Shown here: piece after piece, positions 7,604-32,728 of the stretch
How positions within the stretch are numbered: the stretch's first letter is position 1
Layout: every line of letters starts with the position of its first letter
Virus genome (UHGV): UHGV-2172388
Reading direction: 5' to 3' (one strand)
Source of the DNA: a virus
Length of the DNA: 32,728 nucleotides
Notes under the pieces: model-generated
What the model was told of the DNA's origin: nothing
The model's input: only the letters and a program-made list of their open reading frames with translations
Databases searched by the model: none
Program-made: the position numbers and the translations under genes

Positions 7604-7981
7604 TCAGGAAGCATTTACATCACTAAGGGTATAGAAAATATCGGCTAAATCATCCAGATTCAGCGTTCCCTCAGCCACATCCACCATAATATCTTCCAGC
7701 TTTTGTGTTCGCTTGAGGTTCACACCCTGCATATCAAGGTATGTCAACGCCGTCACCAGTGCCGTTCGCTTGTTGGCATCAGCAAAAACGTGCCCTCTGG
7801 CGATGGCAACCGCATAAGATGCGGCGATCTGGAAAATATCATTCATCTGCTCATACAGAATACGGTTATCCACCCGCGCCAGTGTTGCCTCGACCCGGCC
7901 AGCATCCTGATAACCAACCAATCCCGGCTCATGAGCAAGAATAAAATCGTGAATTCCAATCACCAAATGTGCATCAATCAT
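7604..7981 (-). CDS. doc: Doc-family toxin (Fic-fold kinase, death-on-curing)
   Basis: 125 aa; motif GHVFADANKRTAL matches the Doc/Fic signature HxFx(D/N)(A/G)NKR; overall layout resembles P1 Doc as recalled. Confidence 0.85.
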   Translation of the reverse strand: MIDAHLVIGIHDFILAHEPGLVGYQDAGRVEATLARVDNRILYEQMNDIFQIAASYAVAIARGHVFADANKRTALVTALTYLDMQGVNLKRTQKLEDIMVDVAEGTLNLDDLADIFYTLSDVNAS

Positions 7982-8166
7982 CGGTTAGCCAGCGCCTTAA
8001 TGACTTTGTTGTGTCTGGCATAAATACGTTCTGCCGACTTTTTAATCACACGCTCACCTTCCGGGCCGTCCAGTTTCATTTCGACGGGTACGAACTGCCC
8101 ACTCATACTGTCTCTTTTTACGACCTTGATACCGTATCGGCTGGCAGGACTGCTATTCTTCGCCAT
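7978..8166 (-). CDS. Putative Doc antitoxin, not Phd/YefM-like at the N-terminus (possibly AbrB/MazE-like), C-terminus ...NKVIKALANR
   Basis: 62-aa ORF, stop overlaps the doc start (ATGA); AGAGG RBS 10 nt upstream; C-terminal tail resembles the Doc-neutralising end of P1 Phd (...NKELVNR). Confidence 0.55.
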   Translation of the reverse strand: MAKNSSPASRYGIKVVKRDSMSGQFVPVEMKLDGPEGERVIKKSAERIYARHNKVIKALANR

Positions 8167-12107: not shown

Positions 12108-12563
12108 ATGCCTAATCAACATACTGTTGAAGAATCAACGCGAGCCGCTATCAATGAACTTTTGCGTAACGATGCTCATTTGCTGATTACAGATAATAGT
12201 GAACGGGCTATCGCCAACCGCTTGGGTAGATATCTGGAAAATAACTTCCCGGAATGGGATGTAGACTGTGAATACAATAGAAATGGGGATGCAGTTAAAA
12301 GATTAATTTACGCAGTTGAACCTAACGGAAATGCAAGCGAACGTGATGTTATCCCGGATATTATCGTTCACCACCGAGGAACCGATGAAAACCTGATTGC
12401 GTTCGAACTGAAAAAATCGACCAACAACCAAAGAAATGGCAGAGAAAAAGACCTCCTCAAGCTGCAGGCGTTTAAAGAACAATTGGGTTATAAATATGCC
12501 GTTTTTGTGTCTCTTAAAACAGGCTGTGCGAACCCTGAAGTTACCGAAATCCACTGGATTTAA
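12108..12563 (+). CDS. Moron: PD-(D/E)xK nuclease-fold-like hypothetical protein
   Basis: 151 aa in AT-rich DNA between S and V; putative motifs ...IPDIIVHH... and ...IAFELKK... read as PD and ExK; family assigned by motif only. Confidence 0.5.
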   Translation: MPNQHTVEESTRAAINELLRNDAHLLITDNSERAIANRLGRYLENNFPEWDVDCEYNRNGDAVKRLIYAVEPNGNASERDVIPDIIVHHRGTDENLIAFELKKSTNNQRNGREKDLLKLQAFKEQLGYKYAVFVSLKTGCANPEVTEIHWI

Positions 12564-17310: not shown

Positions 17311-17765
17311 GTCAGGTTTACGCGGCGTTCTACCGTGGCCGGGCTGAACGCTTTTTCAGCCTTGCCCGGCTCTCCGACTGGCTGACTCGACAGGTCACGC
17401 GCGGCCCTTACTCTCACTGCGAACTGGTCGAACGCCAGCCGGATGGCCTGTTTATCTGTTACTCATCATCGGTACGGGATAAAGGCGTGCGCAGCAAACG
17501 AATGCCGCTGCCGATTGAGAAATGGGATTTACTCCCGATCAACGCCGATCCGCTGGCACTGGAAACCTTTTTTCGTCAGCATGACGATAAAGGTTACGAC
17601 TGGCTGGGCGCCATGGGTTTTGTGTTACTCAGTCAGGGCAAACAGGAACGCCTGTTTTGCAGCGAGTTCTGCGCCGAATTTCTGCACCTGCGCGATAGCT
17701 GGCGCTGGTCGCCTAATCTGCTGTATGCGTTGGTCAGCAGTCGGTCTGGAAAATTGACAATATGA
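17307..17765 (+). CDS. Hypothetical protein (about 152 aa) at the G/FI accessory locus, translationally coupled to the downstream methyltransferase
   Basis: ATG 17307 overlaps the G stop; its stop overlaps the dam start; no family recognised. Confidence 0.45.
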   Translation: MSQVYAAFYRGRAERFFSLARLSDWLTRQVTRGPYSHCELVERQPDGLFICYSSSVRDKGVRSKRMPLPIEKWDLLPINADPLALETFFRQHDDKGYDWLGAMGFVLLSQGKQERLFCSEFCAEFLHLRDSWRWSPNLLYALVSSRSGKLTI

Positions 17766-18520
17766 ATACGTTACCCGTTATTCCGTGGATCGGCGGCAAA
17801 CGCCGACTGGCGAAACACATCCTGCCGCTGTTTCCTGAACACCGCTGTTACGTCGAGCCATTTTGCGGAGCGGCGGCGCTGTTCTTTATGAAACGCCCCG
17901 CTCAGGCCGAGGTGCTGAATGATATCAACGGTGACGTTACCAACCTCTACCGGGTACTCCAGCACCATTTAGAAGAGTTTGTCCGCCAGTTTAAATGGTC
18001 GCTGGTCAGCCGCGAAATGTACCGCTGGCTCCAGATCACCCCGGAAGAAACGCTGACCGACATCCAGCGCGCGGCGCGCTTCTACTATCTGCAAAAGCTG
18101 GCGTTCGGCGGCAAGGTGGAAAGCCGCACGTTCGGTACCGCCACCACCTCACCGCCACGCCTGAACCTGCTGCGTATGGAGGAAGATTTATCCGCCGCCC
18201 ATCTGCGGCTGGCGCGCGTCTGTATTGAAAATCTGGACTGGGCCGACTGTATTCGCCGCTATGACCGCCCGCATACCCTGTTCTACTGCGACCCGCCATA
18301 CTGGAAAACCGAAGGCTACGGCGTACCGTTTGGCCTTGAGCAGTACCAGCGTATGGCAGAGCTGGCGCGCACCATGCAGGGCCGGATGATTATCTCGGTT
18401 AACGACATCCCGGAAATGCGCGATATCTTCCACGGCCTGACATTCTCAACGGTAGGGATTCGCTATACCGTAGGCGGAAAGCCAGCCAGCGCTACATCAG
18501 AACTGATTATCCTGAATTAA
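17762..18520 (+). CDS. dam: DNA N6-adenine methyltransferase (Dam-like, D12 class), orphan
   Basis: 252 aa; N-terminal WIGGKRRL and SAM-binding EPFCGAAAL; catalytic FYCDPPY (DPPY) motif. Confidence 0.85.
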   Translation: MNTLPVIPWIGGKRRLAKHILPLFPEHRCYVEPFCGAAALFFMKRPAQAEVLNDINGDVTNLYRVLQHHLEEFVRQFKWSLVSREMYRWLQITPEETLTDIQRAARFYYLQKLAFGGKVESRTFGTATTSPPRLNLLRMEEDLSAAHLRLARVCIENLDWADCIRRYDRPHTLFYCDPPYWKTEGYGVPFGLEQYQRMAELARTMQGRMIISVNDIPEMRDIFHGLTFSTVGIRYTVGGKPASATSELIILN

Positions 18521-19819: not shown

Positions 19820-20335
19820 ATGGCACTACCCAGCAAACTGAAATACCTCAACCTGTTTAACGAGGGCGATATCTATCTGGCGCAGGTGGAGTCCTTCACT
19901 CCGGCAAAGCTGACGCGCAAGCTGGAAGCCTATCGTGGCGGCGGCATGAACGGCGCAGCGCATGTCGATCTGGGGCTGGATGACGAGGCGCTCAGCGTGG
20001 AATGGTCAATCGGCGGCTATGAGCTGCTGGCGCTGCGGCAGATCGGCTGGACGAAGATCAGCGGCGTGATGCTGCGATTCTCCGGCGCTATCCAGCGTGA
20101 AGACAGCGAAGAGTACGACGCAGTGGAAATCGTGGTGCGTGGTCGCCACAAAGAGCTGGATCGCGGCGAATACAAGCAAGGCGAGAACTCCGCGACCAAA
20201 ATCAGCACCCTTTGTACCTATTACAAAGAGAGCGTTAACGGTGAAACCATCGTTGAAATCGACACCGTGAACTTTATTGAAAATATTGACGGCAAAGACC
20301 GTCTGGCTGGCGCACGCCGGGCCATTGGCCTGTAA
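19820..20335 (+). CDS. FII: Tail tube protein (P2 gpFII-like)
   Basis: 171 aa, synteny after sheath. Confidence 0.9.
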   Translation: MALPSKLKYLNLFNEGDIYLAQVESFTPAKLTRKLEAYRGGGMNGAAHVDLGLDDEALSVEWSIGGYELLALRQIGWTKISGVMLRFSGAIQREDSEEYDAVEIVVRGRHKELDRGEYKQGENSATKISTLCTYYKESVNGETIVEIDTVNFIENIDGKDRLAGARRAIGL

Positions 20336-20344
20336 GGATGAACC

Positions 20345-20641
20345 ATGAACGAACGTAAAACCGTGACCCTGAATACTCCCCTGAAACGCGGCGAAACCGA
20401 ATTTGTCGAGTTCCAGATCCGTAAACCGCTGGGCGGCGACCTGCGCGGTGTCAGTCTGGTGGAGCTGCTGAGCCTCAACGTCGACGCACTGACCACCGTT
20501 CTGCCCCGCATCACCGCACCGGCGCTGAATAAGCATGAGGTGGCGCAACTGGATTTTATCGACCTGACGGCCTTCGGTACGGCGCTTGTCGGTTTTTTGC
20601 CGCAGACCTCGCCGGAAGCAGCGGATACCCCGGACGCATAG
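20345..20641 (+). CDS. E: Tail assembly chaperone E (P2 gpE-like)
   Basis: 98 aa; MNERKTVTLNTPLKRGE... similar to recalled gpE. Confidence 0.8.
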   Translation: MNERKTVTLNTPLKRGETEFVEFQIRKPLGGDLRGVSLVELLSLNVDALTTVLPRITAPALNKHEVAQLDFIDLTAFGTALVGFLPQTSPEAADTPDA

Positions 20642-20766
20642 AAGAGGCGCAGGCCGATATCGCCGTTATTTTTCACTGGCCGCTGTCGGCAATGGACGCT
20701 CTCACACTAAGCGAAACCCTTTACTGGCGGGAACAGGCCCGCCAGCGCAGCGGGGCCGATAAATGA
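20345..20766 (+). CDS. E': E+E' fusion made by programmed -1 ribosomal frameshift at the slippery heptamer T TTT TTG (20593-20599)
   Basis: -1 frame after the slip site stays open to TGA 20764-20766, overlapping the T start; the extension (...IAVIFHWPLSAMDALTLSETLYWREQARQRSGADK) resembles recalled P2 E'. Confidence 0.6.
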
Positions 20767-23612
20767 GCACACAGAACCTACGCCTGCAGGTACTCCTCAA
20801 CGCAGTGGACAAAATCACCCGCCCGCTGCGTTCTGTTTCACATCAAAGCAGCGAAACCGCCAGAGCGCTGAAAGCGGCGCAGCAGCAGGTCAAAGACCTG
20901 AACAAACAGGCCGGACAAATCGATGGCTATCGCAAGCTGGCGCGCGATGTCGCCGTCACCGGCAACCAGCTTAAAAGCGCGCAGGATCACGTCCGGGCGC
21001 TGGCCACGGCAATGCAAAGCAGCACTGCGCCCACGGCAGCGATGCGTCGGGAGTTTGAACGTGCCCAGCAGGAGGCGCGGCGACTTAAAGAACGGCATGG
21101 TCAACTTACTCAGGCCCAGCAGCGTAGCCGCACCGCACTGTGCAACGCTGGTATCGATACCCGTAATCTTAGCCAGCGCCAGAGTGAACTACGGCAACGA
21201 CTGGAGAGTGCTAACCGTAGCGTGGAGGAACAGCGCAGGCGACTGGAACGGCTAAACCGGCAGCAACAGCGGATGAACGCAGCAAAAAACAGCTACGCCG
21301 GAGCCATGGACACCCGCAACAAACTGGCCGGATTTGGCGCAACCGCGACGGCCACCGGCGTGGGTATGCTCTACGGCGGTGCGCGGGTAATGATGCCCGG
21401 CTACGATTTCGACGTGGGCATGTCGCGCGTACAGGCGTTAACACGCACCGATAAAAATTCTGATGAACTGAAACGGCTGCGAACGCAATCGCGGGATTTG
21501 GGCGCATCAACCAGCTTTACCGCCAACGATGTGGCGCAGGGGCAGGGTTTTCTGGCAATGGCGGGCTACACGCCGGATAAAATCGAAAAGGCGATGCCGC
21601 ACATGCTGGATCTGGCGAAAGCGGCGGGAATGGATACGCAACTGGCGCAGGTTTCTGATATCGCATCCAATATTCAGAGCGCCTATAAAATCCCGGCTGA
21701 CCAGATGCAACGCATGGCCGACGCGCTGACTTTCACATTCACCACGTCTAATACCGACCTGCAAATGTTGGGCGAAACGATGAAATACGTTGGCCCGGCG
21801 GCGCAGGCGGCAGGGCAGGATTTTGAAACCATGTCGGCAATGGTCGGGATGCTGGGCAACGTGGGGATTCAGGGATCGCAGGCGGGTACCTCTTTGCGTA
21901 TGGCGCTGTTACGGCTGGCAGCCCAGCCCAAACGCGCGGCGGAGGCGCTGGAGGATCTGAAAGTCTCGGTGGCGGACAGTACCGGGAAAATGAAAGAGAT
22001 GCCGCAACTACTGGCAGAAATATCCGCCGCATTTGAGAAGAAAGGGATTGGCGGCGTCGGTAACGTGAAGAAAATGTCCTACATCAAGGATATTTTCGGC
22101 GTGGAAGCCTCCTCCGCCATGATGGAACTGCTCGACAAACAGGCGTCACTCGATCCGTCGCAGCGCATTGAAGCCTATGCCGAACAGGTGAAAGCCTCCC
22201 TCGGTACCGCTGGCAAAGTTGCCAAAACGATGGCCGATAATATGAAGGGGGATCTCCAGAATCTTGACTCAGCGTGGGAAGATCTCGGTATTGAGATGTT
22301 CGAATCGGTAGACAGCCCGTTGCGCAGCATTACCCAACGTATGACCGGCGTTTTACAGTCCATCGGCGCATGGATGAAGGCCAACCCGCAGCTAACCGCC
22401 ACACTGGTGAAAATCGGCATGGCGATCGGCGCGTTCGCCGTAGCGCTCGGTGGCATATCCCTGACGCTGGCCGGTATCCTCGGCCCGATGGCGGCGCTAA
22501 AACTCAGCCTGTCGGTGCTCGGTATTAAGGGCGGCAGCGCGCTAGGGCTGCTGGCGAATGCCTTTAAAGGCGCGGGAAAAGCGGTAATTTGGCTGGGTCG
22601 CGCAATGATGGCTAACCCGGTTCTGGCGGTGATTGCGCTGATCGCCGGTGCCGCCATCTGGATCTGGAGTAACTGGGACTGGCTGGGGCCGAAGTTCGCC
22701 GCGCTTTGGAATAGTTTTAAGCAGGTATGCAGCGATGCGTGGAACAGTGTAAAAACCACAACCAGCGCCGTCTGGGAAGGGATTAAAACGTTTCTCTTCG
22801 GCTGCTGGGACGGGCTGGTGAATATCCTGCTGAACTGGACGCTGCCCGGTCTGGTTTACCAGCACTGGGATACTATCAAAGCAACGACCGTTGAAGCGTG
22901 GAACAGCGTGGTGGCATTTCTGGGGCAAATATGGACGGGCATTACCACTACCGCCACCGGTATCTGGGAGGGAATTAAAACCACCGTCAGCACTGCCCTG
23001 AATGCCATCATTGCTTTTTTCACCAACTGGAACCTGTCCACGGTGTTTACCACAGTCTGGGATAACGTTCTGAACAGTTTCAGTAACCTGTCCACCCGCT
23101 TTACCGAGATCGGCGGCAATATCATGGAAGGGCTGAAACAGGGGATCTTCGCCAAATGGGAAGCGATTAAGCAGGGTGTGCTGGATCTGGGCAGCAATAT
23201 TTCCAACTGGTTCAAGGACAAGCTCGGTATTCACTCACCGTCGCGGGTATTCGCCGAAATGGGCCGCTATACCGTGGACGGGCTGGCGGTCGGGATTGAG
23301 GGCAACACGCAAACGGCGCTGGCCAGCGTAGGGCAACTCTCGAAGCAGTTAATCGCCGCCGGTGCCGGGCTGACGCTCAGCGCCGCCGCTGTCGCCATGC
23401 CCCCTCTCGCCGCCCTGCCGGATAATCGCGCCCCGCTCGCGCCAGCATCCCTTTCCGCACCAGCAACCAGCGGCGGGCCAGTCACTATTCACATCCACGC
23501 TGCTCCCGGCATGAATGAACAACAACTGGCGAAACTGGTGGCGCAGGAACTGGACAAGCGCGAACGGCAGAATGCCGCCAGAACCCGCAGCAGCCTGCGC
23601 GATATTGATTAA
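20763..23612 (+). CDS. T: Tail tape measure protein (P2 gpT-like)
   Basis: 949 aa; coiled-coil N-terminus, hydrophobic middle, Trp-rich repeats; synteny. Confidence 0.9.
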   Translation: MSTQNLRLQVLLNAVDKITRPLRSVSHQSSETARALKAAQQQVKDLNKQAGQIDGYRKLARDVAVTGNQLKSAQDHVRALATAMQSSTAPTAAMRREFERAQQEARRLKERHGQLTQAQQRSRTALCNAGIDTRNLSQRQSELRQRLESANRSVEEQRRRLERLNRQQQRMNAAKNSYAGAMDTRNKLAGFGATATATGVGMLYGGARVMMPGYDFDVGMSRVQALTRTDKNSDELKRLRTQSRDLGASTSFTANDVAQGQGFLAMAGYTPDKIEKAMPHMLDLAKAAGMDTQLAQVSDIASNIQSAYKIPADQMQRMADALTFTFTTSNTDLQMLGETMKYVGPAAQAAGQDFETMSAMVGMLGNVGIQGSQAGTSLRMALLRLAAQPKRAAEALEDLKVSVADSTGKMKEMPQLLAEISAAFEKKGIGGVGNVKKMSYIKDIFGVEASSAMMELLDKQASLDPSQRIEAYAEQVKASLGTAGKVAKTMADNMKGDLQNLDSAWEDLGIEMFESVDSPLRSITQRMTGVLQSIGAWMKANPQLTATLVKIGMAIGAFAVALGGISLTLAGILGPMAALKLSLSVLGIKGGSALGLLANAFKGAGKAVIWLGRAMMANPVLAVIALIAGAAIWIWSNWDWLGPKFAALWNSFKQVCSDAWNSVKTTTSAVWEGIKTFLFGCWDGLVNILLNWTLPGLVYQHWDTIKATTVEAWNSVVAFLGQIWTGITTTATGIWEGIKTTVSTALNAIIAFFTNWNLSTVFTTVWDNVLNSFSNLSTRFTEIGGNIMEGLKQGIFAKWEAIKQGVLDLGSNISNWFKDKLGIHSPSRVFAEMGRYTVDGLAVGIEGNTQTALASVGQLSKQLIAAGAGLTLSAAAVAMPPLAALPDNRAPLAPASLSAPATSGGPVTIHIHAAPGMNEQQLAKLVAQELDKRERQNAARTRSSLRDID

Positions 23613-23625
23613 GGAGGCTCTTATG

Positions 23626-24051
23626 ATGATGGTACTGGGGCTGTTCGTCTTCAGCCTGAAAACCCTGCCCTATCAGGATATGCAGCACGCCGTAGCGTGG
23701 CGGCATCCTGCCAGTTCCCGCGTGGGGCTACGTCCGGCCAGCCAGTTTATCGGCGTGGGTGACGAAACCATTACGCTAAACGGCGTGCTGTTGCCGGAAC
23801 TGACCGGCGGGCGCTTTACTCTGTTTTTCCTGCGTAAGATGGCCGATCAGGGGATGGCGTGGCCGCTGATTGAAGGCACCGGCTCGCTGCATGGCTGGTT
23901 TGTGATTGAGAGCCTGAACGTCACCCGCAGCGTCTTTTTTCGCGATGGTGCGGCCCGGCGCATTGAGTTTACGCTGGCGTTAAAACGTGTCGATCCGCCG
24001 AAGCTAGGTGGCTTGCTGGGCGACATCATCACGATGGTAGACGGACTATGA
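23626..24051 (+). CDS. U: Tail protein (P2 gpU-like)
   Basis: AGGAGG RBS at 23612-23617; MMVLGLFVFSLKTLPYQ... matches recalled gpU. Confidence 0.85.
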   Translation: MMVLGLFVFSLKTLPYQDMQHAVAWRHPASSRVGLRPASQFIGVGDETITLNGVLLPELTGGRFTLFFLRKMADQGMAWPLIEGTGSLHGWFVIESLNVTRSVFFRDGAARRIEFTLALKRVDPPKLGGLLGDIITMVDGL

Positions 24052-25154
24052 CGATGTTAAACGCACTCTTAAACGCCCAGCCGCAGCCGGAGTACAGCGT
24101 GGTGCTGAACGGTAAGGACATTACGCGGAATCTGGACAACCGCTTAATCAGCCTGCGTATCACCGACAACCGGGGCTTTGAGGCCGACGAACTGCAGCTC
24201 GAACTGGACGACAGCGACGGCCTGCTGGCGTTTCCGGCAAAGGGCGAAAAAATAACGGTTTCTCTGGGCTGGAAGGGTGACGGCGTGATGCACCAGAATG
24301 TCTTCACCGTGGACGAACTGGAGCACAGCGGCGCACCGGACGTACTCAGTCTCCGCGCCCGCAGCGCCGATTTCCGCGATTCGCTGAACGTTAAACGGGA
24401 ACAGAGCTACCATGATGTGACGCTGGGCGCGATTGTGCAAACCGTGGCGGCACGTCATAAGCTGGAATCAACCGTCAGCGGCGAGCTGGCTGGGATCGCC
24501 ATTGAGCACGTTGACCAGACTAACGAGTCTGATGCGTCCTTCCTAACCCGGCTGGCGCAAATGCACGGCGCTATCGCCTGCGTGAAAAATGATGCTCTGC
24601 TGCTGATGCCGACAGGTTCCGGTAAAAGCGCCAGCGGCAAGCCGCTGCCGGTCGCAACCATTAACCGCGAGGACGGCGACAGCCACCGGTTCAGCATCGC
24701 GGACAGGGAAGCCTATACCGGCGTAACGGCCTACTGGCTGGATACGCGGCAGGCTAAAAAGCAGTCAACTGACGTGAAGCGCAAGACACGGAAAAATCTT
24801 CCGCAAACGCAACCAACAGAATCGCCGACGTCAGACACCTCATTCAACGCCGATAACGTGATGGTCGGCGAAGAGGGAAATATCAAGGTGCTGCGCCACA
24901 CCTATGCCAACAAAAATAACGCCTACAGAGCGGCAAAAAGCGCGTGGGAGCTATTACAGCGAGGCGCGGCAACGTTCAGCCTGAATCTTGCGCGCGGACG
25001 GCCCGATTTGTTCCCGGAACTGTCGGTGCAGGTGAAGGGGTTTAAGGCGGAGATTGACGGCACCGCGTGGGTGATTACGCGGTGCGTGCATACGTTGGAT
25101 AACAGCAGTGGGTATGGGACGGCGGTGGAGTGTGAGTTGGGGCTGGAAGATTAA
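24048..25154 (+). CDS. D: Tail protein / late control protein D (P2 gpD-like)
   Basis: 368 aa; ATGA overlap with U; synteny. Confidence 0.85.
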   Translation: MTMLNALLNAQPQPEYSVVLNGKDITRNLDNRLISLRITDNRGFEADELQLELDDSDGLLAFPAKGEKITVSLGWKGDGVMHQNVFTVDELEHSGAPDVLSLRARSADFRDSLNVKREQSYHDVTLGAIVQTVAARHKLESTVSGELAGIAIEHVDQTNESDASFLTRLAQMHGAIACVKNDALLLMPTGSGKSASGKPLPVATINREDGDSHRFSIADREAYTGVTAYWLDTRQAKKQSTDVKRKTRKNLPQTQPTESPTSDTSFNADNVMVGEEGNIKVLRHTYANKNNAYRAAKSAWELLQRGAATFSLNLARGRPDLFPELSVQVKGFKAEIDGTAWVITRCVHTLDNSSGYGTAVECELGLED

Positions 25155-26152
25155 TATCCAATACCGCTACTTACACCAACATCACTTAAAATCATTCTCA
25201 ATTCGTTCAAATATCCAGGTAACGGCCATTCTTGCTGTAATTTATTACTGTCTTCATTTATTGCCAGCCAGTAAGTAAAAATGACCACTGGCTGCGCAAA
25301 AAAAAGATTGGCAGTAGCCCTTTGTTGGATTTTATATGATATATATTTTTTCTTATCAAGAAGGTCGATTAGATTAGTCAAAAGATCTTCTTGTATAAAC
25401 GACCTATACTCATCTAAAAAACAATAATTTATTTTATCTTCCTGATTTAAATACTGTCTCCCAATTTTATTTATATAAAAATCTTTTAACTCCTTTAAAA
25501 AATCATTTCTTGGTTTATTAGTATCACATAAAAGCCGCATTGTATTACAAAATAATTCATCTGTTGTTTCCATCAAAGCCATACTACGCGCAATTTGGCG
25601 CTCCGCTTTTTTCGGTACTGGGCCAACAGGTTTATAAACGCTATCATGAACTAATTCTGCATACGCATGCTGCAATAATGTTCTAATTTGTACTTCACAG
25701 CACATATCAGTTGTAATATTAACTCCCGATATAACGCTATTTATCTTTGGCCTTATTTCAAAATGCTTTGATTGATAATCAAATAGTTTAGGGTTTACCT
25801 CTATTTCATCCTGATAATCTTTAGAAACAACAGCTATCCATTGTTCATTATTCTGAATGATTTTACAGATTGTCTCAATATCTTCAGAAAGTAAAACGAC
25901 AAAACGAACGCCAACGAGATCCGTCATCTGCTGAACAGGGTTGTTATAACCTTTACGACCAACCTTCCCTAATGCGGACTCGATACCTTTAACTCTCGGA
26001 GTGGGTGGTACCTTGATGAAGAGCTGGGCGGCCCCTTCACCAAGTTGTTCAATCAAAGCCGCATTGATTTCAGACGCAATATGTTTACCCCATGCTTCAT
26101 AAGCAGCATGGTTTTCAACCAGATAACGTCTAAAATCCTCTATACTCATCAT
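25151..26152 (-). CDS. RelA/SpoT-family nucleotidyltransferase (small alarmone synthetase / toxSAS-like) with about 140-aa C-terminal extension of unknown fold
   Basis: 333 aa in AT-rich DNA; synthetase-domain motifs RVKGIESALGKVGRKG, DLVGVRFVV, CEVQIRTLLQHAYAELVHDSVYK; ATGA overlap with the upstream gene. Confidence 0.7.
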   Translation of the reverse strand: MMSIEDFRRYLVENHAAYEAWGKHIASEINAALIEQLGEGAAQLFIKVPPTPRVKGIESALGKVGRKGYNNPVQQMTDLVGVRFVVLLSEDIETICKIIQNNEQWIAVVSKDYQDEIEVNPKLFDYQSKHFEIRPKINSVISGVNITTDMCCEVQIRTLLQHAYAELVHDSVYKPVGPVPKKAERQIARSMALMETTDELFCNTMRLLCDTNKPRNDFLKELKDFYINKIGRQYLNQEDKINYCFLDEYRSFIQEDLLTNLIDLLDKKKYISYKIQQRATANLFFAQPVVIFTYWLAINEDSNKLQQEWPLPGYLNELRMILSDVGVSSGIGY

Positions 26153-27237
26153 TCTTGACTTTTCAACCGCCCTTTGACTTTAAGTGTAGTTGACTCATCA
26201 TCATCTGTTTGTTCAATCTGTACCAGTTCTTTTACTTGATCTGGTGGTATGGATATCCATACATCGCTTGTAAACACTAATTTACTTCTACGACGAAGCT
26301 TTTTCTTAATATAATCAGTATCTTTAGACACTGCATTCTGCGGAAAACCTTTTTGAGCCATAAATGACTGATAGCTCGTCTGTAATTCTTGAGGAAGATG
26401 TTCCGTAGCAAACGAAGCGGTACTCAAAGTTGCTTTCTGACTTCTCAGTTCAGAACGTAATGACTCGTGTAAATCAAACTTAGTTTCTTCATCAACTGGA
26501 GCCTGATTAATGAAATTTCGAGTATGTTCAAAAAAATCCTGCGTCAATTTCTTGGAGGATTTTTCGATCCCCATTCCAAGAAAAACACTGTAAAAATACC
26601 CCGCAGCATTTTTAGTTTCCGTCGATGTCATCAAGTGATCAAATAAAAATGAACGATAATATTGCGTATCACAACGACCATCAATCAATTCATGGCCTGA
26701 CTCACACTCAATCAACACTCCTATTTTATAAAGCCGCTGAGTTGGTGTAAGTAATAAGTCAGCAATATACTCCATCGCTATTTTCTCTGGGGTATCATTG
26801 GTCCGAAATCCGTTTTGCATTTCAGCACGCAGTACAGCAAAGAATGGGCAGGCTTGTTCACCAATTTTTCCCGTAATGATTACTAACACACCACCGGAAA
26901 CCTTCCCCGCACTATATTGAGCTTCTGTTAACTTATGCGCCAATCGCTTAGATACGTTAATAAATGATTCGCCTTCAACATGTAGTACAGACGTTGTCAG
27001 TGCAAAAAAACTATCATCACCGGTATCAGTGATAGACATTTCAATGCCATGAGATTTATTACCTAAGGCTTCTGTTATACGAACCTGTAGTGCATCCAAA
27101 GCATCTTGTTCTAACGTTATTAACTGATTACTTAACTTAGGTGGAACCATTTGCTTATCGGGAGACCTTGGGAAGATTCGATGAGCAATAATTCTTTCAA
27201 TCATCACCCCCTCAAAAGAAAAGCCGACATTTGCCAT
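26149..27237 (-). CDS. NdpA/YejK-like (NA37 nucleoid-associated protein family) hypothetical protein
   Basis: 362 aa in AT-rich DNA; by-eye resemblance to E. coli YejK in several blocks (IERIIAHRI vs INQIALHQL; GG-hydrophobic block); assignment from memory. Confidence 0.45.
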   Translation of the reverse strand: MANVGFSFEGVMIERIIAHRIFPRSPDKQMVPPKLSNQLITLEQDALDALQVRITEALGNKSHGIEMSITDTGDDSFFALTTSVLHVEGESFINVSKRLAHKLTEAQYSAGKVSGGVLVIITGKIGEQACPFFAVLRAEMQNGFRTNDTPEKIAMEYIADLLLTPTQRLYKIGVLIECESGHELIDGRCDTQYYRSFLFDHLMTSTETKNAAGYFYSVFLGMGIEKSSKKLTQDFFEHTRNFINQAPVDEETKFDLHESLRSELRSQKATLSTASFATEHLPQELQTSYQSFMAQKGFPQNAVSKDTDYIKKKLRRRSKLVFTSDVWISIPPDQVKELVQIEQTDDDESTTLKVKGRLKSQE

Positions 27238-27268
27238 AATTACTCCCTAATAAGCTGAAATTAATAAA

Positions 27269-27604
27269 TCATTGTACTTTTCGACAATTCATCGGTTGCG
27301 CAAGCGCAGCGCTAACCGTGTCAAGGGTGGACTGGTGTTCTGGCGTAGCAGAACGATAGTTTTCCACCAACACACTCTCTTTATTGGACAACGTAACCAC
27401 AGGCGTGCGGTTGCCTGTTAGAACATACAGAACATCAACTCCCGCTGCCGCTATGCCAGCAAGATAGTCACTGTCCGGCTTGCGCAACCCATTCTCATAG
27501 TTGCTTTGTGCGTTTTTCTTCACGCCCCCAAGTTGTCCAAAGCCGTCTTGATCAAGTCCAAGTCGGATACGTTCTTCCTTCAAACGGATGCCAAATTCTT
27601 TCAT
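27269..27604 (-). CDS. XRE-family helix-turn-helix repressor (candidate prophage immunity repressor)
   Basis: 111 aa; HTH_3 pattern IRLKEERIRLGLDQ...YENGLRKP...LAGIAAAGVDVLYVLTG; leftward from the switch region; GC content like the phage backbone. Confidence 0.65.
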   Translation of the reverse strand: MKEFGIRLKEERIRLGLDQDGFGQLGGVKKNAQSNYENGLRKPDSDYLAGIAAAGVDVLYVLTGNRTPVVTLSNKESVLVENYRSATPEHQSTLDTVSAALAQPMNCRKVQ

Positions 27605-27732
27605 TTGGATATAATTACCATTGACAATTCACTCAATTGAGGGAATTATAGATTGTGTAATGTTAATAACCACAATATACCACCATGAAAACAAATGAGA
27701 ACGTCTTACGCTCAAGAGCGCCTCGCGGGGTG
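27605..27732. promoter_or_regulatory. Divergent switch/intergenic region: rightward TTGACA (27621-27626), leftward perfect TATAAT (complement of 27645-27650), 10-bp palindrome CTCAATTGAG (27632-27641)
   Basis: Direct reading of the sequence between the divergent repressor and RHH genes. Confidence 0.4.
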
Positions 27733-27891
27733 ATGTCGAACAAACCGGTGGCAATGCGCCTGCTCCCCGCTGAAATCGCGGAACTGGAAGCATTAGCGCT
27801 GGATCAGAACCGTTCGATGTCCAGCATGGCAAGAATCATTTTTTTGAACGGCATCACACTATTTCGTCAGTCCGTTAACGAAAAGCGTTAG
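27733..27891 (+). CDS. Small ribbon-helix-helix (CopG/Arc-type) DNA-binding protein, candidate Cro/Cox-like early regulator
   Basis: 52 aa from ATG 27733 (MSNKPVAMRLLPAEIAELEALALDQNRSMSSMARIIFLNGI...); divergent from the repressor. Confidence 0.4.
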   Translation: MSNKPVAMRLLPAEIAELEALALDQNRSMSSMARIIFLNGITLFRQSVNEKR

Positions 27892-27909
27892 TGTTTCAGT
27901 TAGTTAAAA

Positions 27910-28158
27910 GTGGTAAGGAGACAGGACATGATGAAATGCCCACACTGCGACGGTAAGGCGATAATTCGCAGCAGCGAATATATGTCACCGCTGGTACGTA
28001 AGCTCTATTACCAGTGCAAAAACGTTAACTGTTCGTTTTCATTTATCGCAATGGAAACCGTGATGGGAACGGTGGTACCGAGCGGTTGCCCGAATCCTAA
28101 GATACACATACCACTATCCACACGCGGGCAATTTCTGCAAAAACAGAAAATCGCGTAA
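27910..28158 (+). CDS. ogr: Ogr/Delta-family zinc-finger late transcription activator
   Basis: CPHCDGKA...YYQCKNVNCSFSF matches the Ogr Cys4 pattern (P2 Ogr CPLC...YHQCQNVNCSATF as recalled). Confidence 0.8.
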   Translation: MVRRQDMMKCPHCDGKAIIRSSEYMSPLVRKLYYQCKNVNCSFSFIAMETVMGTVVPSGCPNPKIHIPLSTRGQFLQKQKIA

Positions 28159-28246
28159 CGCTCAGTAAATAAAAGACTCACAACCACAACGCATAAACAA
28201 CGTGTCTATGCGACGGGTAAGTATTACCTGAATAAAGGTACTGGCA

Positions 28247-30901
28247 ATGCAACCACAACTTCATCAGGAAATTACGCGGCGACTACTGGCCGACTTTTCC
28301 TTTAAAGAACAGGGCGACTGGCTGCGGCAGGGCATCTGCCCGGACTGCCAGAAAAAAGAGCTGTACACCAATGCCATCAGCCCGTGGGTATTGCGCTGCG
28401 GTCGCCTGAATAAATGCAATGCCGAAATCCACATCAAAGATATGTACCCGGATCTGTTTGAAAGCTGGTCAGACAGATATCCCCCAACCCCGGAAAACCC
28501 ACAGGCCGCCGCCGATGCCTACCTGCGCGAGATGCGCGGCTTTGACCTTTCGCTGATCCGTGACTGTTACACTCAAGAGAACTACTACGACCCACGGCGT
28601 GATATCGGTTCAGCGACGGTACGTTTCCCGCTGGCTGACGGCGTGTGGTGGGAGCGGATCGTTGACCGCCCACAGCGTTTCGGCGATCGCAAAGCCAACT
28701 TTCACGGCGCTTACAGCGGGCTATGGTGGCTATTGCCAACGCTGAAGCTGGAAGAACAGCAGGAGATCTGGCTGGTTGAGGGCATTTTTGACGCTATCGC
28801 CCTGCACCACCACGGCATTGCCGCCGTTTCCCTGATGACCTGTAACAACTATCCGGCGCAGGCGTTAAGCCAACTGGCCGCGCTGTTCGTGGATAAAAAG
28901 CGCCCTTTACTGGTCTGGGCGCTGGATAACGACAAGGCGGGCATGAGCTATACCCGGCGATGGGTAAAGCGCAGCCGGGACGAAGGCTGGAGCGCAGCCG
29001 CCGCACAGACGCCGCATTCCCGCAGCAAGCTGGACTGGAACGATTTGCACCAACGCGACCGGCTTAACCCAGAGCTAGTGAAGAAATACCGCTACTACGG
29101 CTCTCTGCTGATCGCCACCTCTCCCGCCGCCAAAGCCCTGCTGATGCACGAACAGACAGAGCGTAAAGAGTTCCACTTCGAGTTTGACAGCCGCCTGTTC
29201 TGGTTCAAGCTGGATATTGACCGCTATATGCGGGTGCATGAAAGTATCTCATTCTCCAATGACGACCTGAGCGAAGAAGAGCTGAAACAGAAGGCGCTGA
29301 AAGAGTCGTCCGCCGTGGTGGAGATCGCCAACTGCTACCCGACCGCCCTCTACTATCAGGCCAACACCATCACCGACGAAAGCTGGTATTACTTTCGCAT
29401 TAACTTCCCGGACGACACGCCGCCGATAAAAAACACCTTCACCGGCTCCCAACTTTCCAGCGGCTCAGAATTCAAAAAGCGCCTGCTGCATATCGCGCAG
29501 GGCGGCATCTTCACCGGCACCAGTCAGCAGTTAGATAAGTTGCTGCTCAAGCAGCTTCCCAAAATCAAAACTGTCCAGACCACTGATTTTATCGGCTACA
29601 GCAAAGAATACCGCGCTTACGTGTTCAACGATCTGGCCGTTCGCGATGGTCGGCTGTACACACTCAACGAAGAAGACTTCTTCGACATGGGCAAACTCAG
29701 CCTTAAAAGCCTGAACCAGTCGGTCAGCCTGACGCTGAACGACAATTTAAAACAGATGGACAGCCAGTGGCCCCAGCTACTCTGGCAGGCGTTTGGCGCA
29801 AAGGGCTTTGTGGCGCTGGCGTTCTGGCTTGGGACGATGTTTGCCGAACAGATCCGCGACAAGCACAAGAGCTTTCCGTTTCTGGAAATCGTTGGCGAAC
29901 CCGGCAGCGGCAAAACCACGCTGATAGAGTTTCTCTGGAAGCTGTTAGGCCGACGCGACTATGAAGGTTTCGATCCGTCTAAATCAACGCTGGCCGCCCG
30001 CGCGCGCAACTTTGCGCAGGTGGCGAACATGCCGGTGGTGCTGATCGAGGGTGACCGTAATCAGGAGGGTGCAAAGCAACGCGGCTTTGATTGGGAAGAG
30101 CTAAAAACCGCCTATAACGGGCGGTCAGTGCGGTCTCGCGGTCTGCGTAACAGCGGTAACGAGACCTATGAACCTCCGTTCCGGGGCTCGATTGTGATTG
30201 CGCAAAACGCCGACGTTAGCGCCTCTAACCCGGTGCTGGAACGTATTATTCACCTGTACACCGACCGCAGCGGCCAGAATACTCAGACCAAGGTCGCTGC
30301 CGAGCAGCTCGAACGCCTGCCGGTGGAACAGCTTTCCGGCTTTATGCTGAAAGCAGCGCTGGCGGAACAGGCCGTGCTGGAGTGCGTCAACCGGCAGATC
30401 CCGCTATACGAGCAGCAGCTTCACGCCCACCCCGATATTCGCCATATCCGCATCATTAAAAACCACGCCCAGCTTATGGCGCTGCTCGACGCGCTGGCGC
30501 TGGTTATTCCGGTCACGAAGGAGCAGCTACAGGCAACCAGAGAAATGTTTATCCGCCTCAGTCTGGAGCGCCAGCAGGCCATCAGCGCCGACCACCCTCT
30601 GGTGCAGGAGTTCTGGGATATTTTCGACTTCCTCGATGGCGACGACGAACCACAGCTCAACCACTCGCGCGATGAACAGCTTATCGCCGTCAACCTTAAC
30701 CACTTTATTCAACTGGCCACCGAACGTCGCCAGCAGATCCCACCAGTCAGCGATTTAAAGCGGGTACTGAAAACCAGCCGTACCCACAAGTTTATTGAAG
30801 TCAGAACGGTTAACAGCGGCATCAACGCTGAATTTAACCGCCGTTACCCAGCCGCATCGCGCCACCCGGCGACGGTGAAGTGTTGGGTTTTTCAACGATA
30901 A
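28247..30901 (+). CDS. Replication primase-helicase (N-terminal zinc ribbon, TOPRIM domain, C-terminal P-loop NTPase), P4 alpha-like
   Basis: 884 aa; CPDCQ...C..LNKC zinc ribbon; TOPRIM-like LVEGIFDAIALHHHG; Walker A GEPGSGKTT. Confidence 0.75.
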   Translation: MQPQLHQEITRRLLADFSFKEQGDWLRQGICPDCQKKELYTNAISPWVLRCGRLNKCNAEIHIKDMYPDLFESWSDRYPPTPENPQAAADAYLREMRGFDLSLIRDCYTQENYYDPRRDIGSATVRFPLADGVWWERIVDRPQRFGDRKANFHGAYSGLWWLLPTLKLEEQQEIWLVEGIFDAIALHHHGIAAVSLMTCNNYPAQALSQLAALFVDKKRPLLVWALDNDKAGMSYTRRWVKRSRDEGWSAAAAQTPHSRSKLDWNDLHQRDRLNPELVKKYRYYGSLLIATSPAAKALLMHEQTERKEFHFEFDSRLFWFKLDIDRYMRVHESISFSNDDLSEEELKQKALKESSAVVEIANCYPTALYYQANTITDESWYYFRINFPDDTPPIKNTFTGSQLSSGSEFKKRLLHIAQGGIFTGTSQQLDKLLLKQLPKIKTVQTTDFIGYSKEYRAYVFNDLAVRDGRLYTLNEEDFFDMGKLSLKSLNQSVSLTLNDNLKQMDSQWPQLLWQAFGAKGFVALAFWLGTMFAEQIRDKHKSFPFLEIVGEPGSGKTTLIEFLWKLLGRRDYEGFDPSKSTLAARARNFAQVANMPVVLIEGDRNQEGAKQRGFDWEELKTAYNGRSVRSRGLRNSGNETYEPPFRGSIVIAQNADVSASNPVLERIIHLYTDRSGQNTQTKVAAEQLERLPVEQLSGFMLKAALAEQAVLECVNRQIPLYEQQLHAHPDIRHIRIIKNHAQLMALLDALALVIPVTKEQLQATREMFIRLSLERQQAISADHPLVQEFWDIFDFLDGDDEPQLNHSRDEQLIAVNLNHFIQLATERRQQIPPVSDLKRVLKTSRTHKFIEVRTVNSGINAEFNRRYPAASRHPATVKCWVFQR

Positions 30902-30910
30902 GGAAATGTT

Positions 30911-31288
30911 ATGAACGAAATATTTAAGGCTCTGGCAACGCAAGAAACCCAACGACAAAGACTTTGCGTAACGCCAGAGGAATACCGCCTTGCTGTCAAT
31001 ACCCTTGTCGACGTTGCTCTCACAGAAACCACCGGCGGACGCGCGGCTGCGCAGGTACTGCTTTCTGCATGGAATGGCTACGTGTGGCAACTGGATATTC
31101 CCGACCTCTGTTATCTGGACTATGACCTGCTGGAACAGGCGCTGATCGTTATCCGGGGGCGGATAATGTTGATGAAAGAGCCGCAGGAGGTGATCCCGGA
31201 GGGGAATGCGGTGATGAAGCGGATTGCAGCGCAGTGGCAACACCTGAACGCCGAACGGCATGGGGAAAACAATGAAAATTGCCATTAG
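30911..31288 (+). CDS. Hypothetical protein (125 aa) downstream of the primase
   Basis: ORF with GGA RBS context, co-oriented with the primase; no family recognised. Confidence 0.4.
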   Translation: MNEIFKALATQETQRQRLCVTPEEYRLAVNTLVDVALTETTGGRAAAQVLLSAWNGYVWQLDIPDLCYLDYDLLEQALIVIRGRIMLMKEPQEVIPEGNAVMKRIAAQWQHLNAERHGENNENCH

Positions 31289-31528
31289 AAAAAACGTGCT
31301 TTTACAGATGGTGCCACTCTCTGAAAGTACGATTTATGCGTTGGAGCAAAAAGGCCTGTTTCCCAACGTTTTGCGCTAACGAAGCGCGCCGTCGCGTGGG
31401 ACAAAGAGGAAGTGGAACGCTGGCTCAAGACTCGGCAGGAAAATAACCATCACCATATTGACAGTGCGGTACAGAAGAATCTGGCCAAAGCACCAAAGCG
31501 CTCTGGTACCAAGATCCCCGCATAGTAC
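31272..31528 (+). pseudogene. alpA: AlpA-like (MerR-type excisionase/regulator) gene apparently disrupted by a frameshift
   Basis: Frame 1 gives MKIAIRKNVLLQMVPLSESTIYALEQKGLFPNVLR then stop; frame 2 continues ...LTKRAVAWDKEEVERWLKTRQENNHHH...; halves match the AlpA pattern (..STIYrl...G.FP....lg.RaVaW...ev..Wl). Confidence 0.35.
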
Positions 31529-32728
31529 TTACGGGCGGTATTGCTTGATCCACCCATCAACCATATCCGCCCACTGCTGCAACATATCACGGCGCTGCTC
31601 TGCGTATTCCGCTTTGTTATAAACGGCTCTGACGCTTCTTTCCTCGTGCGCGAGGCATTTTTCTATCCAGTCGGAATTAAACCCCGCCTCATGCAATAAC
31701 GTCGAGGCCGTTCGGCGCATATCGTGAACGGAAAACGACGCCAGCCTGATCCCCCGTTCCTGCGCCTGCTTAACCGTAAGATTAATGACCCGGTTTAAGG
31801 TCGCCGCCGACATGGTCTTATGCGACGACTGATTGCATGAAGGCAAAACCCAATCACTGCTTCCTGCGCACATTTTCAGGGCAATCAGAATGTCCTGTGC
31901 CTGCCGGGACAGATAAACATTATGATCCCGTGATCCCTTCATCCGGCTGGCGTCAATCGTCCAAAGGCAGGCATTAAAATTAACCTCACCCCACGGCGCG
32001 TTCAGCAGTTCACTTTTACGCACCATCGTTAATAAAACCAATTTAATGGCCAGCTTGATGGTGGGTAATGTACCCGTTTGTTCAAGCTGATTGAAAAACC
32101 AGCCTATCTCCTCTGGCTTGAGCGCCCTGTCGCGCGCTTCGAATGTCGCAATTGAAGCCGGTAAAACCTCTTCGGCAGGATTGGGGTAATAGTCGCCGTG
32201 AAGCGCGGCGAACTTAAATACCGCACTAACGATATTGCGAACCTGAATCGCCGTCGCTGGCGCACCACGCGCTTTTATCTTGTCGCAATACTCACGTAGG
32301 AGAGAGGGGGTTATCTCTGACAGCAGCTTGCGCCCCCATACTGGGGTGATGTCTCTGTCGATAATGCTTTGCTTCATCGCCCTTGTGCTGTCCGCCAGCC
32401 GGGTGTGTTTCATGTAGCTGACGGTAAAATCGTGGAGTGTCTTTTCTTCTTTTCGCTTTGTTTTACCGTCACGCTTCTCTCCAGCGGGCGATATTCCTGC
32501 ATTTACGCGTTTTTTAGCTTCCACTAATTTTTCGCGCGCCTGCGCCAGAGAAATACCGTCACCATAGCGACCAATCGTTAACGTTTCACGACGACCATTG
32601 ATTCGATAGTCATAGCGAAACGTCACCAATCCATTGGGAGATACGGTTACATACAGCCCATCACGGTCTGCAACTTTATAAAGTTTTTCCCGCGCTTTGA
32701 GGTTTTTCAGCTTGGTATCGGTCAGCAT
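31529..32728 (-). CDS. int: Tyrosine integrase, P4/CP4-57 type (N-terminal arm-binding domain)
   Basis: 399 aa; N-terminus MLTDTKLKNLKAREKLYKVADRDGLYVTVSPNGLVTFRYDYR typical of P4-family integrases; C-terminal catalytic region with conserved R...H..R...Y context; start codon at the window edge. Confidence 0.9.
   Translation of the reverse strand: MLTDTKLKNLKAREKLYKVADRDGLYVTVSPNGLVTFRYDYRINGRRETLTIGRYGDGISLAQAREKLVEAKKRVNAGISPAGEKRDGKTKRKEEKTLHDFTVSYMKHTRLADSTRAMKQSIIDRDITPVWGRKLLSEITPSLLREYCDKIKARGAPATAIQVRNIVSAVFKFAALHGDYYPNPAEEVLPASIATFEARDRALKPEEIGWFFNQLEQTGTLPTIKLAIKLVLLTMVRKSELLNAPWGEVNFNACLWTIDASRMKGSRDHNVYLSRQAQDILIALKMCAGSSDWVLPSCNQSSHKTMSAATLNRVINLTVKQAQERGIRLASFSVHDMRRTASTLLHEAGFNSDWIEKCLAHEERSVRAVYNKAEYAEQRRDMLQQWADMVDGWIKQYRP

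Follow-up and report, generated by a model that had tools for sequence, protein, structure and literature searches.

A putative type I PANGU abortive-infection operon carried as cargo behind the immunity repressor of a P2-like prophage

Organization of the locus

The locus lies in a P2-like prophage integrated next to guaA and was analysed within a window comprising the whole 32,728-nucleotide stretch of DNA from the virus genome UHGV-2172388. Two minus-strand genes occupy, as cargo, the slot between tail gene D (gpD, late control D family; positions 24048-25154, plus strand) and an XRE-type immunity repressor gene (27269-27604, minus strand). The first, the pag1A-like gene (26149-27237), encodes a YejK/NA37-family nucleoid-associated protein of 362 residues and 40.8 kDa, and the second, the pag1B-like gene (25151-26152), encodes a putative GRel-type small alarmone synthetase of 333 residues and 38.4 kDa. 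Stop and start codons of the two genes overlap by 4 nt in an ATGA (26149-26152, minus strand; GAATGATG), an arrangement that implies, as far as sequence can indicate, translational coupling of pag1A and pag1B. The gpD gene converges on the pag1B-like gene, and the stop codons of both are interlocked in the TTAA at 25151-25154, thus leaving no intergenic space for a terminator.

The repressor, a protein of 111 residues with HTH_3 and HTH_31 matches of which the former lies above its cutoff, is encoded by the backbone of the P2-like prophage, outside the cassette, and the Ogr/Delta gene (27910-28158) is divergent from it. A 31-nt spacer (27238-27268, minus strand), which displays an AGGGAG Shine-Dalgarno/ribosome-binding site, separates the repressor stop codon from the pag1A start codon. 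Consensus scanning revealed no promoter-like and no terminator-like site in this spacer and placed facing promoter-like sites at 27588-27701, these scans being at or near chance level and used only for the absence of sites in the 31-nt gap. Because the gap comprises only 31 nt and has no predicted terminator, the cassette is probably transcribed from the repressor promoter, and a joint transcript of repressor and cassette genes, as for lambda cI-rexAB, appears plausible. The 111-residue HTH protein was itself considered as a member of the cassette and rejected for the window; the repressor is 99% identical in sibling prophages whose cassette differs. Related HTH genes precede the pair in Dickeya, in N. 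gonorrhoeae and in one viral contig.

The exchangeable cargo module, to which no strand is assigned, extends from 25117 to 27292 (2,176 bp, 37.2% GC), with ends defined by the breaks in homology to a sibling prophage, and includes 38 nt from the 3′ end of gpD and 24 nt from that of the repressor gene. Its GC fraction is 0.372, compared with 0.555 for the remaining window. The preliminary description of the locus, as two ATGA-coupled genes in markedly AT-rich DNA, tail-to-tail with gene D with no room for a terminator and co-oriented with, and 31 bp downstream of, the XRE repressor, agrees with this layout in every respect.

Type I PANGU

The pairing of an NA37 protein with a toxSAS already has a name and a proposed mechanism, and is thus not to be pursued as a discovery. 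The preliminary description, which named no system of this kind and held that a match to one would refute its proposal, is superseded on this point. Type I PANGU, reported on 6 April 2026 in an unreviewed preprint, consists of Pag1A, a nucleoid-associated sensor, and Pag1B, a GRel toxSAS (bioRxiv 10.64898/2026.04.06.716658). In the published system Pag1A rests on the chromosome until phage nucleases degrade it, whereupon freed Pag1A binds the C-terminal domain of Pag1B, breaking an inactive tetramer, and the resulting complex produces pppGpp so that infection is aborted (bioRxiv 10.64898/2026.04.06.716658). The mechanism and protection against phage were described for systems of this type from three species, among them an ‘NA37 + gRel’ operon of E. 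coli (bioRxiv 10.64898/2026.04.06.716658). The window operon might or might not equal the PANGU-Ec operon of that preprint.

Type I PANGU is defined by a YejK-like nucleoid-associated protein (IPR007358/NA37, at least 300 residues) with an effector gene less than 40 bp away. In the window, the gene for a 362-residue protein with an NA37 match of 9.5e-15 overlaps the effector gene by 4 nt, and the effector is a small alarmone synthetase whose catalytic residues, the G-loop Tyr among them, are intact. In AF2 models the effector combines a SYNTH domain with a helical linker and a C-terminal helical domain, as in Pag1B, and its partner has a YejK fold (9be2), as in Pag1A.

Structure and relatives of the Pag1B-like protein

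The Pag1B-like protein matches Pfam RelA_SpoT (PF04607) over residues 53-174, with an E value of 1.7e-18 and 67 bits against a cutoff of 27. It contains DLVGVR at residues 78-83, FDYQSKH at 124-130, which includes the G-loop Tyr126, and EVQIRTLLQHAYAELVHDSVYK at 153-174. Of the synthetase motifs noted earlier, DxxGxR and the E/Q/R/H stretch are therefore present, whereas the supposed GRxK reads PRVK (52-55). Motif positions are invariant across 23 homologues, the invariant catalytic residues being R53, K55, D78, G81, R83, Y126, E153, Q155, R157 and H162.

In the AF2 model (pLDDT 84) the SYNTH domain (residues ~1-195) is joined through a long linker helix (198-229) to a C-terminal helical domain (239-324), which is a putative partner-binding domain by analogy with the published family. 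The C-terminal ~135-140 residues have no Pfam assignment, as had been noted for a region of about 140 residues. The corresponding DMK domain of published Pag1B is acidic and DNA-mimicking (bioRxiv 10.64898/2026.04.06.716658). Residues 201-333 of the window protein have a net charge of -1 and a pI of 5.5, and the 23 homologues span -7 to +3; an acidic DNA-mimic character is not evident from net charge.

The nearest structural and profile matches of the Pag1B-like protein are RelP and RelQ (Foldseek 1e-7, sequence profile 1e-10), which are homotetrameric pppGpp synthetases. CapRel follows at 3.4e-5 by Foldseek and 0.024 by sequence profile, and no Tas1 or FaRel structure was matched in the Foldseek and profile searches. 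NCBIfam returned SAS matches at sub-threshold level only, and PADLOC 2023 contains no model of an NA37 + RSH pair, its sole match being a partial one between PDC-S33 and the SYNTH domain (residues 34-166). The Pag1B-like family is largely gammaproteobacterial with members of ~330 residues, the gRel group of SAS being gammaproteobacterial by definition; synteny and architecture are the grounds on which the window protein is provisionally placed in the GRel subgroup.

These relationships bear on the reaction catalysed. The preliminary description pointed to synthesis of (pp)pApp, as by FaRel/Tas1, or pyrophosphorylation of tRNA, as by CapRel, and either could still be coupled to an NA37 sensor, given that RSH substrate choice is not reliably readable from sequence and that family homologues go down to 33-40% identity. 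We nevertheless regard such chemistry as quite improbable, as the nearest proteins by both profile and fold are pppGpp synthetases, CapRel is a weak match and Tas1 and FaRel are missing among the structures matched. The published family synthesises pppGpp, with guanine nucleotides as the only acceptors and no labelling of tRNA (bioRxiv 10.64898/2026.04.06.716658).

The Pag1A-like protein as a presumed sensor

Over its full length the Pag1A-like protein matches Pfam NA37 (PF04245; E 9.5e-15, 55 bits, cutoff 24.6). The only significant PDB structure match of its AF2 model (pLDDT 79) is E. coli YejK (9be2, E 1.4e-8), and its earlier assignment to the NdpA/YejK family is upheld by both comparisons. 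Against PDB sequences, neither Pag1A by itself nor a Pag1A profile gave a match, the PANGU cryo-EM structure being absent from the copy searched. The segment KSSKK (residues 226-230) is conserved and fits a KxxRK pattern; in Ferrimonas futtsuensis Pag1A the basic DNA-contact motif is formed by K200, R203 and K204 (bioRxiv 10.64898/2026.04.06.716658). By analogy, the protein is presumed to be a DNA-bound sensor and activator. WP_074388881.1 (the L725 protein) is 100% identical to window Pag1A, and the cluster that it represents was classified by DefensePredictor as a predicted novel defence gene, with a log-odds of 6.9.

The NA37 protein might instead be an antitoxin. In a classical type II toxSAS toxin-antitoxin pair the NA37 protein would neutralize a constitutive toxicity of the RSH protein, and the pair would mainly stabilize the prophage by addiction, and the tight coupling of the genes with the putative neutralizer first would suit such a function. 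The same prophage encodes another TA-like module, a Fic/Doc protein (7604-7981), and all earlier-studied toxSAS (FaRel, PhRel and CapRel) are toxin-antitoxin systems, as summarized in the preprint (bioRxiv 10.64898/2026.04.06.716658). Published Pag1B, however, is non-toxic or inactive alone, as is its isolated SYNTH domain, Pag1A activates Pag1B in vitro, and a DNA-binding-deficient Pag1A mutant renders the pair toxic (bioRxiv 10.64898/2026.04.06.716658). Moreover, a 40-kDa DNA clamp of YejK fold is unlike known toxSAS antitoxins. We thus consider addiction highly improbable as the main function of the pair. Of the roles first suggested for the NdpA-like protein in a two-gene defence module, those of sensor or partner are retained and that of antitoxin is not, since the published NA37 protein is activator and sensor.

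Conservation of the gene pair

The NA37 gene abuts the RSH gene, directly upstream, in all 24 genomic loci with sufficient flanking DNA, which span several bacterial lineages, and the two genes abut likewise in 43 of 43 viral-contig (IMG/VR) loci with sufficient flank. Identities of both proteins to the window proteins co-vary (r = 0.94, 63 loci), and pag1A and pag1B are abutting in the tblastn alignments of 38 of the 63 related loci. Neighbourhood conservation, which had been proposed as a check on the pair, is thus extensive, and on these sequence comparisons the NA37-RSH pair is inherited as a unit. The scan of genome contigs yielded 26 loci, none from F. futtsuensis or P. aeruginosa, and the names listed by two protein searches include neither species. 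Among INPHARED phages no Pag1A homologue and no full-length Pag1B homologue was found.

Altogether, the cassette that this P2-like prophage carries as cargo is likely to be a type I PANGU system acting by abortive infection, a membership that rests on architecture, synteny and family homology and not on measured identity to a tested system.

Prophage context and the sibling cassette

A blastn comparison of the window with a sibling prophage (L002) revealed homology only at 20215-25116 and 27293-32728. In the same slot, sibling prophages carry a type II-like NA37 cassette in place of pag1A-pag1B, composed of an NA37 protein, a 418-residue protein that is acidic in its N-terminal part and has hydrophobic segments towards its C terminus, and an extra DUF6037 gene. 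The sibling NA37 protein presents 20% identity to window Pag1A, and a scan of viral contigs with it revealed no relatives. The cassette has a foreign GC content and is exchanged between sibling prophages.

Cargo of this kind might act on the host rather than on phages, by altering the stringent response, persistence or nucleoid organization. Being in an operon with the repressor, the cassette would be active in the lysogen, an alarmone synthetase domain is present, and PADLOC 2023 gave no full-length match, only that of the SYNTH domain to PDC-S33. Lysogenic conversion with no anti-phage action is nevertheless the least probable of the alternatives weighed here: three homologous operons are phage-protective in the preprint, DefensePredictor rates the Pag1A cluster as defensive, the pair sits between the Q antiterminator and the lysis genes in a lambdoid prophage in IMG/VR, and sibling prophages fill the slot behind gpD with a further NA37-based system.

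Beyond the assignment of the window cassette to type I PANGU, this rare lineage of P2-like prophages may use its gpD/repressor junction as a dedicated site for exchanging NA37-based sensors, alternating between type I (toxSAS) and type II-like (DUF6037 + NA37 + membrane effector) PANGU cassettes. Swapping would result from recombination within the 3′ ends of both flanking genes, gpD and the repressor gene, and the lysogen would transcribe the cassette together with its immunity repressor. When the prophage turns lytic, convergent late transcription of the tail operon, meeting no terminator before pag1B, would silence the cassette, and the three-gene sibling with DUF6037 would represent an uncharacterized PANGU subtype. 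Taken as a whole, this reading is possible but rather doubtful.

Proposed mechanism

The mechanism considered for the window locus is carried over from the published family. In the lysogen, the repressor promoter would drive the operon, chromosomal DNA would sequester the Pag1A-like dimer and the Pag1B-like GRel synthetase would be kept inactive as an oligomer. Degradation of the host chromosome by a superinfecting phage such as T4 would free Pag1A, which would bind the helical C-terminal domain of Pag1B and dissolve the inactive oligomer. The complex would then move pyrophosphate from ATP to GTP/GDP, making (p)ppGpp and draining NTPs, and both effects would stop transcription and translation and abort the infection. 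The prophage would thereby shield the host population against competing lytic phages. Degradation of the host chromosome is not known from P2-like phages, and the system should therefore tolerate its own carrier.

Three aspects of the locus are of wider use. Type I PANGU appears to be carried by temperate phages, namely the P2-like prophage in the window and the lambdoid prophage in IMG/VR. Slot alternation in this lineage provides a natural isogenic prophage pair for comparing both effector types, and the repressor-pag1A-pag1B segment is a native-promoter construct for PANGU at physiological expression.

Comparison with known systems

RelQ and RelP (PDB 5DEC, 6EWZ and others) match residues ~50-200 of window Pag1B best in both sequence and structure, but they are housekeeping enzymes that lack the C-terminal partner-binding domain and an NA37 partner and are not located on mobile elements. 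CapRel SJ46 (fused toxSAS TA, PDB 7ZTB) is likewise encoded by a phage, as an abortive-infection effector of RelA/SpoT fold that has a regulatory domain at its C terminus, and its SYNTH fold matches that of window Pag1B. In contrast, CapRel SJ46 consists of one protein that is auto-inhibited in cis, responds to phage capsid protein and pyrophosphorylates tRNA, while the window system presumably requires a separate NA37 partner and is much less similar to CapRel than to RelP/RelQ.

Lambda cI-rexAB and the P2 accessory loci (old, tin, Z/fun) similarly express exclusion or defence genes from a prophage. The window cassette resembles them in lying downstream of, and co-oriented with, the repressor and in being cargo exchanged between related prophages, although the proteins are unrelated and the window slot is flanked by tail gene D and the repressor. 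Type II PANGU/DefensePredictor DS-1 (NA37 + membrane effector) shares the NA37 sensor and has a similar cassette in the slot of the sibling prophages. It differs from the window system in its effector, which in the window is a toxSAS, and the sibling cassette has the additional DUF6037 gene.

Type I PANGU displays the same bicistronic order, with a YejK-like NA37 gene followed by a ~330-residue RSH gene, and the same effector architecture of N-terminal SYNTH, helical linker and helical C-terminal domain, with the G-loop Tyr present. Protein sizes are 40.8 and 38.4 kDa in the window against 40.6 and 37.5 kDa in the published P. aeruginosa pair (bioRxiv 10.64898/2026.04.06.716658). The joint inheritance of the pair is shared as well, as is occurrence in Gammaproteobacteria, expected for the gRel subgroup. 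Differences are found in the window Pag1B C-terminal domain, which is not markedly acidic by net charge, and in the location of the operon, which immediately follows the immunity repressor gene of a P2-like prophage; the preprint nowhere uses the word ‘prophage’. The only new element relative to the preprint is this context: the position behind the repressor of a P2-like prophage and the alternation of cassettes.

Genetic organisation of the locus

The cassette comprises two minus-strand genes, a proximal pag1A-like gene (NA37; 26149-27237, 362 aa) and a distal pag1B-like gene (RSH; 25151-26152, 333 aa), which are preceded on the same strand by the XRE repressor gene (27269-27604, 111 aa). A 31-nt gap containing the ribosome-binding site AGGGAG separates the repressor from the pag1A-like gene, the two cassette genes overlap by four bases (GAATGATG), and TTAA at 25151-25154 holds the interlocked stop codons of the 333-aa gene and of tail gene D (gpD), which ends at 25154 on the plus strand. 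The GC content of the cassette is 0.372, against 0.555 in the rest of the window. All three proteins match Pfam families above the gathering cutoffs: the proximal protein matches NA37 over its full length (9.5e-15), the distal protein RelA_SpoT over residues 53-174 (1.7e-18) and the 111-aa protein HTH_3. The structural details of the preliminary description were thus all borne out, and its domain-level reading of both cassette genes is correct. The RSH motifs it listed are present and invariant across homologues, except that the motif given as GRxK is PRVK here.

A consensus scan of the 31-nt gap revealed no promoter-like or terminator-like site, and the promoter-like sites upstream of the repressor face the early promoter region. 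Since these scans operate near chance level, we infer co-transcription of the cassette with the repressor from geometry.

Predicted structures of the cassette proteins

As modelled by AlphaFold (pLDDT 84), the RSH protein has three parts: a SYNTH domain extending to residue ~195, a single long helix (residues 198-229) and a helical C-terminal domain (residues 239-324). A Foldseek search of the PDB placed the pppGpp synthetases RelP and RelQ at the top (about 1e-7) and CapRel (7ZTB) at rank 39 (3.4e-5). The family profile keeps the same order (1e-10 for RelP/RelQ versus 0.024 for CapRel), with no match to Tas1 or FaRel. The only significant PDB match of the NA37 protein model (pLDDT 79) is E. 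coli YejK (9BE2; 1.4e-8 over 355 aligned columns).

Conservation of the NA37-RSH pair

Searching protein databases with the distal protein returned 747 homologues; among the best 120, nearly all are ~320-335 aa long and those carrying an organism name are mostly from Gammaproteobacteria. A scan covering a single genome of each species returned 26 loci; in all 24 of these that have upstream DNA, an NA37 gene lies directly upstream of the RSH gene, usually with a stop codon that it shares with the RSH start. Hosts of the pair include Dickeya, Serratia, Erwinia, Kosakonia, Pseudomonas, Halomonas, Snodgrassella, Neisseria, Methylomonas and Gallionella, as well as Planctomycetota and Syntrophobacter MAGs. 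Scanning IMG/VR with the NA37 alignment identified 45 viral contigs, and the RSH gene comes next in 43 of the 43 having downstream DNA. Identities to the two window proteins correlate across the 63 loci with both genes (r = 0.94). Adjacency in 24/24 and 43/43 loci, together with this correlation, argues that the pair is a single, co-inherited module. The exact window proteins are already public, on 202 and 253 contigs, and are annotated in E. coli as ‘GTP pyrophosphokinase’ and ‘nucleoid-associated protein’.

Cassette exchange in the prophage slot

The window is a P2-like prophage adjoining guaA, ordered as capsid/terminase block, lysis genes, baseplate, tail, gpD, cassette, repressor, Ogr/Delta gene, replication protein and integrase; the replication protein is primase-helicase-like, annotated as ‘toprim domain-containing’ in L725, an E. 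coli strain with the window's cassette. Among 5,426 complete genomes of E. coli, only 4 have this lineage. Two carry the window's cassette at about 100% identity, and the other two carry, in exactly the same gpD/repressor slot, genes for a DUF6037 protein (190 aa), a different NA37 protein (382 aa; 20% identical to that of the window) and a 418-aa protein (GMF054, L002 4930-7933; strain 24A16CRGN010, L075 6629-9631). In L075 the 418-aa gene is broken into two ORFs. PADLOC found no match for any of the three alternative-cassette proteins; DefensePredictor classes the DUF6037 one (WP_024247617.1) as a ‘predicted novel defense gene’. The 418-aa protein is acidic in its N-terminal part (net -15) and has hydrophobic segments towards the C terminus, and so resembles the type II effector Pag2B.

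In the window, homology to L002 ends at 25116 and starts again at 27293, so the final codons of both gpD and the repressor gene belong to the exchanged module. In its tail genes the window is nearest to the sibling with the other cassette (99.7%). L725, with tail genes about 96.6% identical to those of the window, has exactly the window's cassette. Together these identities suggest that the cassette was exchanged recently.

Related loci and other cargo

The pair is also found in a lambdoid prophage (IMG/VR UViG_2724679380_000003, L029 8001-10078; 61% and 59% identity), between a Q-like antiterminator and endolysin, on the opposite strand. The closest relative outside E. coli, in Dickeya oryzae ZYY5 (L003 4627-7002), has a Pag1A of 95% and a Pag1B of only 85% identity, and its preceding HTH gene is 41% identical to repressor residues 28-111. 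Its flanks (MobA/MobL relaxase, TraD, H-NS and shufflon genes) are those of a conjugative element rather than a phage. In Neisseria gonorrhoeae DSM 9188 (L026 4368-6980) the order is XRE-type HTH gene, pag1A, pag1B; pag1B aligns as two overlapping pieces in different frames and is probably a frameshifted pseudogene.

Tail and baseplate genes flank a second AT-rich island of the window (GC about 0.40), which contains a 151-aa ORF (12108-12563, plus strand) matching PADLOC PD-Lambda-3_A (1.3e-38) and no Pfam family. L725 has a different gene at this position, annotated ‘abortive phage resistance protein’, and the island looks like a second cargo slot. A third AT-rich island encodes a 125-aa Fic/DOC-family protein (7604-7981, minus strand; Pfam 2.6e-10, PADLOC PDC-M59B 3.6e-8), preceded and overlapped by a 62-aa ORF (7978-8166, minus strand). 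They are probably a Doc/Phd-like toxin-antitoxin pair; in this region of its prophage L725 has a RelE/ParE and HTH pair instead. Just upstream of the tail sheath gene lies an orphan Dam-type (D12 class) N6-adenine methyltransferase gene (17762-18520, plus strand; Pfam 2e-28, PADLOC MTase_II 3.7e-114).

Relationship to type I PANGU

The pairing, regarded as undescribed in the preliminary description, has already been named and its mechanism described. ‘PANGU’ denotes operons of a YejK-like nucleoid-associated protein and an effector (bioRxiv 10.64898/2026.04.06.716658, 6 April 2026). Type I pairs Pag1A with the GRel toxSAS Pag1B, which consists of a toxSYNTH domain at the N terminus, a helical linker and a ‘DNA-mimicking’ domain at the C terminus. 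According to the preprint, protection against T4 or Bas34 is conferred by the systems of F. futtsuensis, P. aeruginosa and E. coli (the last as ‘NA37 and gRel’, with native Shine-Dalgarno and Ptet); it needs both genes and the G-loop Tyr, and neither Pag1A nor Pag1B alone is toxic. Pag1A associates with long DNA and covers the chromosome. After degradation of host DNA, it changes location and engages the C-terminal domain of Pag1B (Kd about 9 nM). Pag1B, inactive as a tetramer, thereby becomes part of an A2B heterotrimer, which synthesises pppGpp from ATP and GTP and does not label tRNA; T4 escapes through denA (EndoII) mutations (bioRxiv 10.64898/2026.04.06.716658). The gRel group was defined in 2011 as a gammaproteobacterial SAS subgroup (PMC3153485). 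DefensePredictor validated DS-1, a different NA37-containing E. coli system, and its supplementary table lists the WP_074388881.1 cluster as a predicted novel defence gene (PMC13092281); WP_074388881.1 is the Pag1A of L725 and shares 100% identity with its window counterpart.

The window's cassette agrees with type I PANGU in operon layout, in the NA37/YejK fold of the proximal protein, in the intact active site and three-part architecture of the RSH protein, and in size (40.8 and 38.4 kDa; the P. aeruginosa proteins have 40.6 and 37.5 kDa). From these features, matched to the preprint's description, the cassette is predicted with high but not complete confidence to be a type I member. The word ‘prophage’ is absent from the preprint, and the prophage slot alternating between two NA37-based cassettes goes beyond it. 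A second point of interest concerns the acidic, DNA-mimicking C-terminal domain of the preprint's Pag1B, whose window counterpart (residues 201-333) is close to neutral by net charge (-1; homologue range -7 to +3); in several homologues (e.g. P0074, P0096 and P0104) the domain is net positive. This raises doubt about how general the ‘acidic DNA mimic’ character is, and the description may not extend across the whole Pag1B family.
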